Source: Escherichia coli
Lineage (GTDB): Bacteria > Pseudomonadota > Gammaproteobacteria > Enterobacterales > Enterobacteriaceae
Assembly: GCF_003790525.1 (NCBI RefSeq)
Contig: NZ_CP033635.1
Direction: 5' to 3' (one strand)
DNA length: 64,000 nt
Of the stretch, positions 9,538-25,815 are shown in pieces. Every line of letters starts with the position of its first letter. Position 1 is the stretch's first letter. The notes below the pieces were generated by a model. That model did not search any database. It had not been told where the DNA came from and saw only the letters and a program-made list of their open reading frames with translations. The position numbers and the translations under genes are program-made.

Positions 9538-10678
9538 GGGACGGTTTCTCGTTAATAAAATCCAGGGCTTCCGGCACCGGAAGATGAGTAGGTTGTACAG
9601 GGCGCTGTCCTCCAGCCAGACGCCAGCGTTTCAGTTGCCAGACCCAGGCCAGCACTTCCGCTACCGCGGCGTACAGTTGACCCGGGATTTGTTGACCGAT
9701 CTCCGCATGTCGATACAGCGCTCGCGCCAGCGGCGGCGCTTCAAGCGTAGGGACGTTATTTTCAGCACCAATTTCACGAATGCGCAGCGCGACCAGTCCT
9801 GCACCTTTAGCGACCACTTTCGGTGCGCTCATTTTGTTTTCGTCATACTGCAACGCTACCGAATAGTGGGTTGGGTTATTGACAATGACATCCGCTTTCG
9901 GCACATCGGCCATCATCCGACGCCGCGCGGCAGCTCGCTGCATCTGACGTATCCGCCCTTTAACATGGGGGTCGCCTTCGCTTTGTTTGAACTCATCACG
10001 AATATCCTGCCGCGACATTCGCAGCTTTTTCAGGTGGCTGAAGATTTGGAAAAAGACGTCAAATCCCACCATCGGAATAACACCAAGCACCACCAGCAGT
10101 GCGCATAGCCCTACCAGATCCATCGCATTACCCATGGCGGTAATCGGAGACTCGGCCATTAAGCGCATCATCTGCGGCCAGTGATGCCAGAGAAAAAACC
10201 CCGTCACGCTGCCAACCAGGATGGTTTTCAAAATTGCCTTAAGCAACTCCGCGCCAGTCTGTGCCGAGAACATCCGTTTAATGCCCGGTAGCGGGTTGAG
10301 TTTGGAAAACTTCGGCTGCAAGGATTTGCCGCTAAATACCAGCCCCCCCAGCATAACCGGAGAAATAATCGCCACCAGCACCACGCCGCTAATCAGCGGT
10401 AGCAGCGCCAGCATGGCTTCTCTGATCAGCAGAATAATCTGCCCGAGGATCAAATTCGGGTCATTGATAATACTGTGATCAAAATGCAGCCCAGCGGAGA
10501 GCATGCCCGACAATCGACGGGCCAGCGACACACCGCCAAACCAGATAACACACACGCCCACTAACAAAATCAGCAGCGAGGTCAGTTCACGGGAACGCGG
10601 GATTTGCCCCTCTTCCCGCGCTTTTTCTAGTCGGTGAGGTGTGGGGGCTTCTGTTTTGTCGTCGCTCTCGTCAGACAC
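9530..10678 (-). CDS. flhB: flagellar export apparatus switch protein FlhB
   Basis: 382-aa ORF with NPTH autocleavage motif (VIVNNPTHYSVAL). Confidence 0.97.
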   Translation of the reverse strand: MSDESDDKTEAPTPHRLEKAREEGQIPRSRELTSLLILLVGVCVIWFGGVSLARRLSGMLSAGLHFDHSIINDPNLILGQIILLIREAMLALLPLISGVVLVAIISPVMLGGLVFSGKSLQPKFSKLNPLPGIKRMFSAQTGAELLKAILKTILVGSVTGFFLWHHWPQMMRLMAESPITAMGNAMDLVGLCALLVVLGVIPMVGFDVFFQIFSHLKKLRMSRQDIRDEFKQSEGDPHVKGRIRQMQRAAARRRMMADVPKADVIVNNPTHYSVALQYDENKMSAPKVVAKGAGLVALRIREIGAENNVPTLEAPPLARALYRHAEIGQQIPGQLYAAVAEVLAWVWQLKRWRLAGGQRPVQPTHLPVPEALDFINEKPSHE

Positions 10679-10914
10679 GTCGCCAATCCTGGAAAGAGTA
10701 TTAAGCGTAAATGATGCCAGATCGCAAAGCGTTCAATGGTTTGAGTAAGGGGCAAAACAGGCGGGATTTAGGGCGTTTATGCAAAAAACAGGTTCAGTTG
10801 CAGAACGTTTTGCGAACCATTTTCCAGTTCTGATATTTAGCCATTTAGCCTATAGAATCGCCCACCGCCTCTCTGTTAGTTTGCTAATAATTAAATTATT
10901 ACAAAGGCGATCAA
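10679..10914. promoter_or_regulatory. divergent intergenic region: flhBAE class-2 promoter region (minus) and putative promoter of the inserted cassette (plus)
   Basis: 236-bp gap between divergent starts; candidate sigma70-like elements ttgcga (10810-10815) and tatagaat (10851-10858); RBS aagg 9-12 nt upstream of ATG 10915. Confidence 0.4.
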
Positions 10915-12423
10915 ATGGAATGGCAACAATTGCTTAACTGCAACCGTCGGAAAGATAATCTAAAAAAAACCAGCATAGAATTTTTACATCCCCTTGCTAG
11001 CGGAAGACAAGAGATCGAGCGGGATTACGACCGATTACTTTTTGCTGCGCCAACTCGTCGGCTTGCGGATAAAACACAAGTTTTCCCGTTAGATCAAAAT
11101 GACAGTATACGGACGAGGCTGACTCATTCTCACGAAGTAGCAAACTTTGCTCGCGGAATAGGAATGAGACTCGCTTTCGAGATGAAGGAACACATCTTTG
11201 GCGAAATACCCACGGGGATTGTCGTTGAACGCGACGTTCCTGCTCTGTTAGCAGCGATCGGACTGGCACACGATCTCGGTAATCCACCATTTGGGCATCA
11301 AGGTGAAGCAGCGATGCGCGCATGGTTTAATAAAAATCTTCCAGGCCTTCTTGATAAAGAAGTAAACAGCGAAATATATAACGACTTTCTGCAATTTGAT
11401 GGAAACTCACAAACCCTACGCCTGGTTACCAAATTACAAATTATTAACGATAACTTTGGTCTGAATCTGACCTATGCCACGCTGGCTGCACTGATCAAAT
11501 ATCCCCGAGCTTCATATTCATCGGACAAACATTGGAAAAAGCACGGTTTTTTCTATTCTGAGCATGAGGTTGTCATGGATGTCTGGCAGCAAACGGGCCT
11601 TGGCGTACCAGGTAATGATGCCGGTTGCCGCCACCCATTTACCTGGATAATGGAAGCTTGCGACGATATTGCCTACTCTGTGCTTGACGCAGAAGATACC
11701 ATCAAGAAAGGATTTGCCTCATACCAGGATTTGCGTGATTTTTTGATGTCACAATCCGAGCCGAACGATGTAATTCAACATGTTATTGAAGCTGTAGAGG
11801 CCAAAAATGACGCCTGGAAAGAGCAAAGAAATGCACTTTCACCGGCGGAAATTAATGAACTCAGTATGCAAATGTTCAGAGTTTATGCCACCAGTGCATT
11901 GATTAATGCCGTAGTAGAAGCCTTTCGCGAACAATTACCCACGCTGATGCAGCGTGACTGCCCGTTCAAAGATTTAATCTCGCAAAGCAAAGGTCACGCT
12001 CTCTGCACTGCCCTGAAAATGTTCGACCGAACACGAGGCTACCTTCATCGTTCAGTCTTGCAACTGGAACTTAGGGGATCTAATTACATTACTAACTTGA
12101 TGGATATGCTCTGGATTGGCATCCATGGACACAAAACAAAGAAACAACGAGACGGAGAACGCGAGTCCGCGTCTGCAGATAACCTTTTTGTTTCTCGTGA
12201 AGAATACCTGTCGGATACTCCCTTTGGTCGCTATGCTTACGGGACAATCTCTGAAAATTATCGCCGTGTGTTTGAAGATCCCGCCAATACACTCCCTGCT
12301 CTTTATAAAGAAGCGCAGTTGCTTACCGACGCAATCTCAGGCATGACGGATAGTTATTTAATGCGCCTTCACGATGAGCTAAAATCACTGTATGAATGTG
12401 GTCTCAAACACCCAACAGCTTGA
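10915..12423 (+). CDS. dGTP triphosphohydrolase (Dgt)-family HD-domain protein, extra paralog in non-native locus
   Basis: 502-aa ORF; motifs RRLADKTQVFPL, RTRLTHSHEV, HDLGNPPFGHQGE, FDGNSQTLRL, WIMEACDDIAYSVLDAEDTI, ISGMTDSYL align with E. coli Dgt by eye; AT-rich; opposite strand to flanking flagellar genes. Confidence 0.8.
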   Translation: MEWQQLLNCNRRKDNLKKTSIEFLHPLASGRQEIERDYDRLLFAAPTRRLADKTQVFPLDQNDSIRTRLTHSHEVANFARGIGMRLAFEMKEHIFGEIPTGIVVERDVPALLAAIGLAHDLGNPPFGHQGEAAMRAWFNKNLPGLLDKEVNSEIYNDFLQFDGNSQTLRLVTKLQIINDNFGLNLTYATLAALIKYPRASYSSDKHWKKHGFFYSEHEVVMDVWQQTGLGVPGNDAGCRHPFTWIMEACDDIAYSVLDAEDTIKKGFASYQDLRDFLMSQSEPNDVIQHVIEAVEAKNDAWKEQRNALSPAEINELSMQMFRVYATSALINAVVEAFREQLPTLMQRDCPFKDLISQSKGHALCTALKMFDRTRGYLHRSVLQLELRGSNYITNLMDMLWIGIHGHKTKKQRDGERESASADNLFVSREEYLSDTPFGRYAYGTISENYRRVFEDPANTLPALYKEAQLLTDAISGMTDSYLMRLHDELKSLYECGLKHPTA

Positions 12424-13144
12424 ACAGCGTATCGCCGATTTTTTTACGCTTAGTGATGAGCATAAGAAAGCCAGAGTATTACTTGATACTCTGGCCTGTT
12501 CCTGTCCGGCCTGGATTTTTGGCGGGATGGTGCGTGACTTAGGCTTGTTTGGCGTCGAGGGATTCTCTTCAGACCTTGATATCGTCATCGGTCGCTCCCG
12601 TGAGGAACTCTTCCGGACATTGGCTGAACTGCCCGTCAAACAACTGCGTTTTAATAAGTTCGGTGGGATCCGTTTTCGTTATCACGACTTCGAATTTGAT
12701 ATCTGGAACCTCAATGAGACATGGGCATTTCGGGAAAAACTTATATTTTGTGAGGATGAATCAAGTCTGTTAAACACTACGCTGATGAGTTGGGATGCCG
12801 TGCTCTATGATCTACGTAGTGAAAAAATTATCAGTAAAGATAATTATTTGACCGACTTAAATCGCAGACATCTTGAACTTGTTCTTCATACTAACCCCAA
12901 TCCAAGCGGTTCGGTAACGAAAATTTTACGCACTATTTTTACTAAGCAGGTAAAGAGTTTAGGTCCGGAACTCTGTCATTTCTTGCACCATGAACTGACG
13001 AAAAAACGTTATGAAGTTTGGCATCATTACGATGTACTGCACTACCAGTCATCGTCATTTTCTCGTTCACAATTTAATGCGTTGATAAATTTACTGGCGC
13101 AACAATCACGCTTCGCTGATCTAAAATTATCAAATTACAAATAA
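12392..13144 (+). CDS. Pol-beta superfamily nucleotidyltransferase, CCA-adding/poly(A) polymerase head-like
   Basis: 250-aa ORF with IFGGMVRDLGLFGVEGFSSDLDIVI, matching the GGxVRD...DxD head motif of class II tRNA nucleotidyltransferases; overlaps preceding gene by 32 nt; very AT-rich. Confidence 0.55.
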   Translation: MNVVSNTQQLEQRIADFFTLSDEHKKARVLLDTLACSCPAWIFGGMVRDLGLFGVEGFSSDLDIVIGRSREELFRTLAELPVKQLRFNKFGGIRFRYHDFEFDIWNLNETWAFREKLIFCEDESSLLNTTLMSWDAVLYDLRSEKIISKDNYLTDLNRRHLELVLHTNPNPSGSVTKILRTIFTKQVKSLGPELCHFLHHELTKKRYEVWHHYDVLHYQSSSFSRSQFNALINLLAQQSRFADLKLSNYK

Positions 13145-13231
13145 CCATCCTCCACATACTTCCTGAACGATACCCGCCCCCCTGCTATCGGCCTGGCATC
13201 ATCGCGCAGGCCGAAGTTAAGGCAATACAAA

Positions 13232-13876
13232 TCAAAATCCAAGACTATCCAACAAATCGTCCACCTGATCCTGACTGGCTACCACACCGGCTTTGCTGGT
13301 ATCGACCTGAGGTCCATTAAGCAAACTCTGGTTTTCACGTTTTGGACGCGACTCCTGTTCCGGGATGTTTTCCAACAGCACCATCAGCAACTGACGTTCG
13401 ATCTCCTGAATGACATCCATCATCCGCTTAATGACCTGCCCGGTGAGATCCTGAAAATCCTGCGCCATCATGATTTCCAGCAGTTGCGCGTTAGTAAAGC
13501 TGGTATGCGCGGGGACATCTGCCAGAAATTGCCGCGTATCTGTTACCAGTTCACGGGCGTCGGCAAGGTCAATCGGATCGGCAAACCAGTCATCCCAACG
13601 TTGGGTTAACGCTTTTGCTGATTTCTCCATTTGATCCTGATGCGGTTGTGACGCCTCAACACTGTTCAGCGCCCGCTCCGCAGCCTGGGCGGTCATCTGC
13701 ACAACATAGTACAAACGATCGCGCGCATCGGGGATGGCTTCCGCCGCTTCGGCAATGGCCTGATCCAGCCCCAGCTCCCGCAAACTGTCGCGCAGCATAC
13801 GCGTCAGGCTGCCGATGCGCGCAATGATATCGCCAGCTGAATGCTCGTCAGCAGGTTTGATTGATGGTTGCATCAT
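13232..13876 (-). CDS. cheZ: CheY-P phosphatase CheZ
   Basis: [35 protein letters not shown]... (214 aa from MMQPS). Confidence 0.96.
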
Positions 13877-25036: not shown

Positions 25037-25815
25037 TATTCCCACCCAGAATAACCAACTTTATTTTTATGCGGTTTCACCGCACCCCGTGATGTCGCCG
25101 GGAAGCCCCGGTAAAAAATAATTAGCATTAGAATAGTTGCGATAAGCTGCAATAAGCAGAACCACCTTTTTGGTTTAATATGTCCTTACAAATAGAAATG
25201 GGTCTTTACACTTATCTAAGATTTTTCCTAAATCGACGCAACTGTACTCGTCACTACACGCACATACAACGGAGGGGGGCTGCGATTTTCAATAATGTGT
25301 GATGCAGATCACACAAAACACTCAATTACTTAACATAAATGTATAAGTCATACTTTTGTTTTGGGTGTATTTCAATCTGTTAAAAAGTTTTTCGCTACGC
25401 TAGCAAGCAAAAATGAAACAGGAATAATCGAAATGGGATGTTGCGCACAGTTAAAATAACTCACCGTAAATAATCATCTGCTATAAATAATCACTTTCAT
25501 GCAATACCAGATAAGCTATTTTTAAACAGACACTTACCGCACAACAAACTAATTAAATACAAAGAAAGGCAACAATCAACTTAATGTTAATGAAATGTTT
25601 TACATATATTAACCACTTGTTTAATGCGGAGAATCAGTACACTATTTTCTTATAATTACATTTGAAATTATATGATCACCGGGAGTGATTGATTAATTGT
25701 CTTTACTAATAATCAGACTAATATTTACCTGTTTGACCGAGTTGGGATTGCGTCGTTTCTCCATTAGGAGTAAAGCTTTAATGTCACCTGAAGTTCACAG
25801 AATAAGGAACAGGTT
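25037..25815. promoter_or_regulatory. flhDC promoter/long 5' UTR and divergent uspC promoter region; no IS element present
   Basis: About 780-bp AT-rich intergenic region between divergent flhD and uspC, uninterrupted by any transposase ORF. Confidence 0.6.

Follow-up and report, generated by a model that had tools for sequence, protein, structure and literature searches.

Why should an Escherichia coli chromosome carry a second gene for a deoxyguanosine triphosphate (dGTP) triphosphohydrolase (dGTPase) between flhB and cheZ? The question is raised by a 64,000-nucleotide stretch of E. coli DNA (contig NZ_CP033635.1; hereafter the window), in which a preliminary description, made from the letters alone, had pointed to a divergent and horizontally acquired paralog of the housekeeping enzyme Dgt with a likely role in defense. 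We used the chromosome of E. coli SMS-3-5 (NC_010498.1), to which the window is a 100% match, as the genome for comparison. The evidence presented here makes it very probable that the locus is a two-gene anti-phage operon of the Clover family, cloA-cloB, which is inserted as accessory DNA between flhB and cheZ and works as described for Clover. The SMS-3-5 locus is a divergent member of that family, and the mechanism of the family is already known from a 2025 preprint rather than new.

The Clover defense system (CloA/CloB) was described in Salmonella enterica SA20044414 and E. coli H5 (Yamaguchi et al. 2025, bioRxiv 10.1101/2025.07.09.663793; PMC12265719). In that account CloA, an HD hydrolase specific for dGTP, assembles into an octamer (the "four-leaf clover") and is inactive alone; it is activated by deoxythymidine triphosphate (dTTP), which rises as T5-like phages remodel the pool of deoxynucleoside triphosphates (dNTPs). 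CloB is a nucleotidyltransferase (NTase) of the Pol-beta superfamily that produces p3diT (pppdTpdT), and p3diT binds a pocket adjoining the dTTP site and suppresses CloA activation; loss of CloB activity is toxic. Protection by the Salmonella and E. coli H5 systems exceeds 10,000-fold against T5-like phages but is weak against T7, a distant Xanthomonas CloB likewise makes p3diT, and the authors counted more than 650 Clover systems (Yamaguchi et al. 2025).

The dGTPase gene cloA

The coordinates 10915-12423, given in the preliminary description, are exact for the dGTPase gene, yet this gene is half of the functional unit. An overlapping partner at 12392-13144 had been missed, so the locus is a two-gene unit and not a lone enzyme. 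The five motif blocks that had been quoted (RLTHSHEV, GLAHDLGNPPFGH, EACDDIAYSVLDAED, TRRLADKTQVFPL and AISGMTDSYL) are all present in the 502-residue translation, and database matches lie far beyond chance. CloA scores 284.9 bits against the NCBIfam model TIGR01353 dGTP_triPase (cut-off 152.35), covering model positions 2-388 of 389, and the PADLOC dGTPase model matches it at 5.8e-71. It fails every equivalog-level NCBIfam model, including the best match, the generic dGTPase equivalog PRK01096 (358 bits, below the cut-off of 439), and a Pfam search recovers a partial HD domain only.

The closest structures in the PDB are entries 9p8s-9p8v (eight chains each, named "DNTP triphosphohydrolase"), which match residues 1-495 of CloA with 639 bits (E = 5.6e-191); the best dGTPase structure other than CloA reaches 184 bits. 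CloA is 65% identical with Salmonella CloA and 64% identical with E. coli H5 CloA. We mapped residues in a MAFFT alignment of SMS-3-5 CloA, Salmonella CloA, H5 CloA (taken from the H5 genome) and housekeeping Dgt, and assessed the variability of each column in an alignment of 121 homologs of the CloA clade.

The predicted catalytic set, which had been called intact from its HD motifs, is indeed so. The metal ligands H71, H119, D120 and D250 and the dyad H128/E131 correspond to H69, H117, D118, D242 and H126/E129 of Salmonella CloA, and these columns are invariant in the family alignment except for D118 (Salmonella numbering), which is kept in 120 of the 121 sequences. Among the CloA residues named in the Clover paper, all six catalytic or metal-binding residues and all eight dGTP contacts are retained. 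Where the preprint lists "Q377" among the guanine contacts, Salmonella CloA and all 121 homologs have Glu at position 377.

Both allosteric pockets are also conserved. The nine residues of the dTTP-activator pocket (R49, D63, Q175, K264, S446, N448, A473, T478 and Y481) are all identical with their counterparts in Salmonella CloA (R47, D61, Q172, K256, S418, N420, A444, T449 and Y452), so that the base-reading residues D63 and T478 and the stacking pair R49/Y481 are kept. In the p3diT-inhibitor pocket, nine of ten residues are identical: R31, R36, D39, R40, F43, N77, N184, Q319 and R322 stand for R29, R34, D37, R38, F41, N75, N181, Q311 and R314 of the Salmonella protein. The sole change is from T25 in Salmonella to L27, at a column that holds T, L, S, I or K across the homologs. 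The base-reading residues Q319, D39 and N77 are present, as are all three arginines needed for p3diT inhibition; mutation of these arginines abolishes inhibition of CloA (Yamaguchi et al. 2025). The base-reading residues of both pockets are invariant or changed in 1 of the 121 homologs, except N77, which is N in 93 of them and otherwise T or A. The differences at switch and interface positions (Q427 to D455, L174 to I177 and H263 to Q271) all fall at columns that vary across the homologs, and at position 427 the Salmonella residue is itself the minority state. The dimer-interface residue R46 of Salmonella is retained as R48. Homology with the characterized CloA and conservation of its pockets are thereby established.

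The partner gene cloB

RefSeq labels cloA as "dgt" and cloB as "hypothetical protein". CloB was assigned by pairwise comparison with the CloB of E. coli H5, by the residues invariant in its family and by a fold search; Pfam gives a sub-threshold PolyA_pol match only (E = 0.099). It is 35% identical with the experimentally used H5 protein (E = 1e-54). Across 22 CloB homologs, a G44-G45-x2-R48-D49 motif and an acidic triad, D61/D63/D103, are invariant, and D61-L-D63 together with D103 has the active-site form [D/E]h[D/E]...h[D/E]h. D61 and D63 align with the DxD pair of H5 CloB, which is D71/D73 by our own count, and D71A/D73A are the changes introduced into a CloB by Yamaguchi et al. (2025).

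An AlphaFold2 model of CloB has a predicted local distance difference test score (pLDDT) of 91.5 and a predicted template modeling score (pTM) of 0.88. When the model was used in a fold search, class II CCA-adding enzymes were the best matches, with E values of 1.7e-8 and weaker (to 1e-5). This fold fits a template-independent enzyme that adds one nucleotide to a 3'-OH. Class II CCA-adding enzymes and the head-neck part of poly(A) polymerase (PcnB) have the same GG-x2-RD...DxD motif, and CloB would share with them template-independent 3' nucleotide addition. They are 13-20% identical with CloB, which lacks their tRNA-binding body and tail domains (250 residues compared with about 400). Moreover, CCA-adding enzymes and PcnB use an RNA 3' end, whereas the primer of CloB would be free dTTP. 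The fold and the triad of CloB are taken as established. The coordinates of both genes and of the other features discussed here are collected in Table 1.

Table 1. Features of the cloA-cloB locus, in window coordinates
Feature	Position	Strand	Description
cloA	10915..12423	+	502-aa HD-superfamily dGTP triphosphohydrolase, predicted effector; ATG at 10915, stop codon ends at 12423
cloB	12392..13144	+	250-aa Pol-beta-superfamily nucleotidyltransferase, putative regulator that would make the inhibitory signal
cloA/cloB overlap	12392..12423	+	32 nt; arrangement consistent with coupled translation
Lineage-specific insertion in CloA	12120..12200 (approximate)	+	about 22 charged residues (about residues 408-431); no counterpart in Salmonella CloA, which has a gap there in the HMMER alignment
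Cassette-borne region upstream of cloA	10783..10914	+	divergent from the flhB promoter region; weak sigma-70-like match at 10830-10858
Accessory block	10783..13219		2,437 bp, about 45% GC; replaces 84 bp of the usual flhB-cheZ spacer

The gene pair in other genomes

The dNTPase-NTase pair was reportedly first noted by Nicastro et al. in 2023. Homologs of CloB are spread across the Enterobacteriaceae, and a dNTPase gene lies immediately upstream of the CloB homolog in all of the contexts opened (eight independent contexts). The overlap between the two genes in the enterobacterial loci ranges from 32 to 47 nucleotides, being 38 in Enterobacter and Cronobacter and 47 in E. coli H5 and Atlantibacter. 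The gene structure and the strict two-gene synteny are thus established, and the overlap together with the recurrent pairing indicates that the functional unit is a two-gene operon.

The surroundings of the pair vary among genomes. Enterobacter, Cronobacter and a close relative (locus L014) carry it at the same flhB-cheZ position as E. coli. In Atlantibacter hermannii it lies in an island with a gene for a type I restriction-modification HsdR and with DarT/DarG-type (Macro) genes; the E. coli H5 copy is part of a tRNA-Sec integrase island; and on a distant metagenomic contig its surroundings are transposases and a GmrSD-like gene. The pair is also present on two plasmids, a conjugative one of Phaeobacter and a megaplasmid of Bacillus thuringiensis.

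Several of these loci show further features. On the conjugative plasmid pP14_b of Phaeobacter piscinae (L018:493-4780), a Clover-like dgt gene and a gene whose product is 34.5% identical with CloB come straight after genes labeled "phage Gp37/Gp68 family" and "three-Cys-motif partner protein TcmP", a group that may be a small defense cluster. At the flhB-cheZ site of Enterobacter CP056155.1 (L003:3365-6753), an IS3-family element (HTH_Tnp_1/rve, 373 residues) splits cloA into fragments of 396 and 87 residues and leaves cloB intact; the toxic partner is lost and the protective one kept. In E. coli H5 (L010:1353-5535) and A. hermannii (L008:80-4259), one and the same cluster of five to six genes invariably stands in front of the H5-type Clover operon: a small open reading frame (ORF), a PfkB kinase fused to a nucleoside 2-deoxyribosyltransferase-like domain, a QueC-like 7-cyano-7-deazaguanine synthase, a hypothetical protein, an Ogg/HhH glycosylase-like protein and a Dam-like methylase. 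Next to a dGTP-depleting system, this cluster has the look of a module for DNA modification or defense that is directed at guanine or deazaguanine.

The insertion between flhB and cheZ

In a BLAST comparison of the window with an empty site (L002), homology stops at 10782 and resumes at 13220. The intervening block has a lower GC content than its flanks (about 54% GC). It occurs in 106 of 5,426 complete E. coli genomes (about 2%), always at no less than 98.3% identity; a divergent version is found at other locations in eight further complete genomes. The block is therefore accessory, and the earlier suggestion of horizontal acquisition is upheld by its low GC content, the 84-bp replacement and its sporadic distribution.

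Neither in the block nor at its junctions did annotation and the empty-site comparison reveal an integrase, a transposase, terminal or flanking direct repeats or a target-site duplication, so a classical mobile-element insertion is unsupported. A fixed defense hotspot at flhB-cheZ in E. coli was likewise rejected, since 29 of 29 sampled non-carriers show an empty site of about 350 bp. A search of phage genomes for CloB homologs found none, leaving a prophage or phage-borne origin without support. With mobility features absent, recombination through the flanks is the fallback: the fixed location across genera, with no mobility gene, probably reflects a cassette that spreads by recombination through the flanking core genes.

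Short sequence blocks upstream of cloA, including TTTTGCGAACCATTTTCCAGTT and CTCTGTTAG, are common to the cassettes of E. coli, L014 and Enterobacter in an intergenic alignment (window 10783-10914 compared with L004:4354-4589 from Enterobacter and L014:3079-3550). They are kept although the CloB proteins of these cassettes are 50-73% identical. This conservation suggests that the cassette brings its own promoter, and the blocks are a candidate cassette-borne promoter or operator, back-to-back with the flhB promoter region. A promoter scan of the cassette gave 3 sites where 4.0 were expected from shuffles, which is not significant alone; promoter and terminator sites taken together were not above shuffled sequence, and an Rfam scan of 10600-13300 found nothing.

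Two other places in the window stood out. Between fliE and yedL, at 57419-58884, the flagellar region holds a second small accessory insertion, where RefSeq annotates a type III secretion system effector gene with leucine-rich repeats (espR3) and a 141-bp fragment of an integrase pseudogene. At 25037-25815 the GC fraction falls to about 0.38, the lowest in the first 30 kb that were profiled. The dip falls in the long intergenic stretch between uspC and flhD, ahead of the flagellar master operon, and resembles normal AT-rich regulatory sequence more than foreign cargo.

Discussion

How would the pair work in SMS-3-5? We infer the enzymatic activity, the ligand identities, the oligomeric state and the phage specificity of this allele from its relatives. 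CloB, acting without a template, would continuously join two dTTP-derived units into p3diT. The product would fill the CloA pocket formed by R31/R36/R40 at the dimer interface, compete with dTTP and raise the threshold for activation, so that the enzyme is off and uninfected cells are shielded from self-inflicted depletion of dGTP. When a T5-like phage remodels the dNTP pool, the rise in dTTP would displace p3diT through the adjacent R49/Y481 pocket and order the active-site loop, and the activated, dGTP-specific CloA would then drain dGTP and starve phage DNA synthesis.

The likeness to the Salmonella and H5 systems lies in the overlap and order of two genes on one strand, with an HD dGTPase first and a Pol-beta NTase after it, and in the conserved CloA pockets and CloB aspartate triad. 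The SMS-3-5 locus differs from them in that its CloA is 31 residues longer than the characterized proteins and its CloB is 26 residues shorter than that of H5 (250 compared with 276 residues), and in its site, the flhB-cheZ spacer as opposed to the tRNA-Sec integrase island of H5. CloB has diverged from the characterized systems much more than CloA.

Several observations weigh against assigning the locus to Clover with the mechanism described. CloB is only 35% identical with a validated CloB, searches of NCBIfam and PADLOC (2023) return nothing for CloB, these collections contain no CloB model, and a PDB sequence search with CloB gives no match and offers no CloB structure for comparison. In CloA, the tetramer-stacking residue H263 is Q271 (the column is Y, H or Q across the homologs), and the charged insertion is placed within the C-terminal helical bundle, shortly before S446 and N448, which bind dTTP in the characterized protein. 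This insertion is a loop of variable length in the family alignment and is common to the Cronobacter, Pseudescherichia and Cedecea versions; together with the change at H263, it means that the oligomeric state and the activation threshold may differ, and the C-terminal bundle is what sets the interlock angle of the octamer (Yamaguchi et al. 2025). The insertion site in E. coli has no adjoining mobility or defense genes. Finally, the supporting Clover paper is a preprint, and it prints the CloA structures as 8P9S-8P9V where the matching PDB entries are 9P8S-9P8V. We read the printed codes as transposed, since the matching entries run on into 9P8W (the preprint's code for the Shewanella putrefaciens dGTPase, SpdGTPase), the chain matches a Salmonella enterica protein and the residue numbering agrees with the paper.

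In one alternative, cloA would be a second Dgt in the service of nucleotide homeostasis or mutation-rate control, with no immune role. This fits a best NCBIfam match to a generic dGTPase equivalog and the setting of the pair in E. coli, Enterobacter and Cronobacter, where the neighbors are core genes for flagella and chemotaxis and none is mobile or defensive. The score against PRK01096 is nevertheless below its cut-off, the block has atypical GC content and a distribution limited to the few genomes counted above, the same family is found in defense islands and on plasmids, the IS3 disruption in one Enterobacter genome shows that cloA is dispensable, and close homologs protect against T5-like phages by the factor already given (Yamaguchi et al. 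2025). The gene is also distinct from the housekeeping one. As had been proposed, the true dgt lies outside the window, in SMS-3-5 at 189432-190949 of the chromosome record, between mtnN and degP and about 1.1 Mb from cloA; it is a core gene at mtnN-dgt-degP, whereas cloA is accessory. Both proteins belong to the TIGR01353 subfamily and have identical metal ligands, the HE dyad and most dGTP contacts (E. coli Dgt, PDB 4X9E/6OIY). Their divergence, also anticipated, is plain: 29% identity by BLASTP and 30.5% in the MAFFT alignment, 133 bits for the E. coli Dgt structure in the PDB search, and a CloA score of 270.9 bits against the housekeeping equivalog NF003429 (PRK04926; cut-off 405), which it fails. 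Unlike CloA, Dgt is without most of the p3diT pocket (E25, S34, G37, N41 and M334) and part of the dTTP pocket (A61, M197, E282 and R450). We regard a purely metabolic paralog as the least probable of the readings considered here. Only slightly less improbable is a stand-alone defensive dGTPase of the kind described by Tal et al. (2022), either constitutive or regulated by phage transcription shut-off, with the downstream ORF as an unrelated hitch-hiker. Such enzymes share with CloA the HD fold, the logic of dGTP depletion and the match to the PADLOC "dGTPase" model, and the catalytic and dGTP-contact residues are common to SpdGTPase-type enzymes as well (Yamaguchi et al. 2025). SpdGTPase itself works without an NTase partner, as a hexamer whose activity is constitutive and directed mainly against T7 rather than T5 (Yamaguchi et al. 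2025). However, CloA fails the curated anti-phage dGTPase model NF041026 (182.9 bits, cut-off 400) and NF003701/PRK05318 (153.5 bits, cut-off 383), the better-scoring of two matched stretches in this type of test covering residues 30-203 only; the SpdGTPase structure 9p8w matches with only 89 bits, in the N-terminal third; both CloA-specific allosteric pockets are conserved; and, where a stand-alone enzyme is a single gene, cloA has a downstream partner that overlaps it by 32 nucleotides and is syntenic in all eight contexts. The defensive role read into the gene at the outset is supported by its 65% identity with a validated CloA, but the enzyme is not of the stand-alone type, and a check with T7 Gp1.2-type inhibitors, proposed at the same time, is less relevant because validated Clover acts mainly on T5-like phages and weakly on T7.

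A third alternative keeps the Clover architecture and changes its chemistry: CloB would make another inhibitory nucleotide, and CloA would sense another activator or hydrolyze other dNTPs. The divergence of the CloB lineage, the 22-residue insertion beside the activator pocket and the differences at L27 and Q271 speak for it. Against it, the residues that read the bases of p3diT (Q319, D39 and N77) and bind those of dTTP (D63, T478 and R49/Y481) are retained, and nearly all are fixed in the family (N77 apart, as detailed above); the Xanthomonas enzyme, distant as it is, also makes p3diT (Yamaguchi et al. 2025). We consider it very unlikely, if a shade less so than the other two, and favor a Clover operon with the described chemistry. 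Within the Clover assignment, the flhB-cheZ sublineage might still be functionally distinct, because of the charged insertion, the different tetramer contact and the low identity of CloB: the activation threshold, the oligomer or the phage range may differ, and adjacency to the FlhDC-dependent flhB promoter could couple the operon to the flagellar regulon. This is an unlikely proposal, for which we found no positive support.

SAMHD1 is a human HD-domain dNTP triphosphohydrolase that restricts viruses by depleting dNTPs and is allosterically activated by nucleotides. It is a distant homolog of CloA and differs from it in its broad dNTP specificity, its tetramerization driven by GTP and dNTPs and its lack of a dedicated inhibitory dinucleotide. 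It is cited as an analog by Yamaguchi et al. (2025), as are Hailong and Panoptes/MISS, in which, as in Clover, a constitutively made nucleotide signal keeps the effector off. These latter systems, which we liken to Clover by description only, use oligodeoxyadenylate and 2'3'-c-di-AMP as signals, made by different synthases, and their effectors are membrane proteins.

The practical value of the result is correct annotation, in place of the two RefSeq labels and of the single-gene dGTPase system that PADLOC 2023 would call. The flhB-cheZ cassette is a small example of a defense cassette at a fixed site across genera, and it opens no new mechanistic question. Its identity as Clover would explain the stable carriage of a potentially toxic dGTPase and predicts T5-like phages as the target range. 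As a natural divergent allele, with CloA at 65% and CloB at 35% identity and a loop next to the dTTP sensor, it should be useful for examining how general the control by dTTP and p3diT is.

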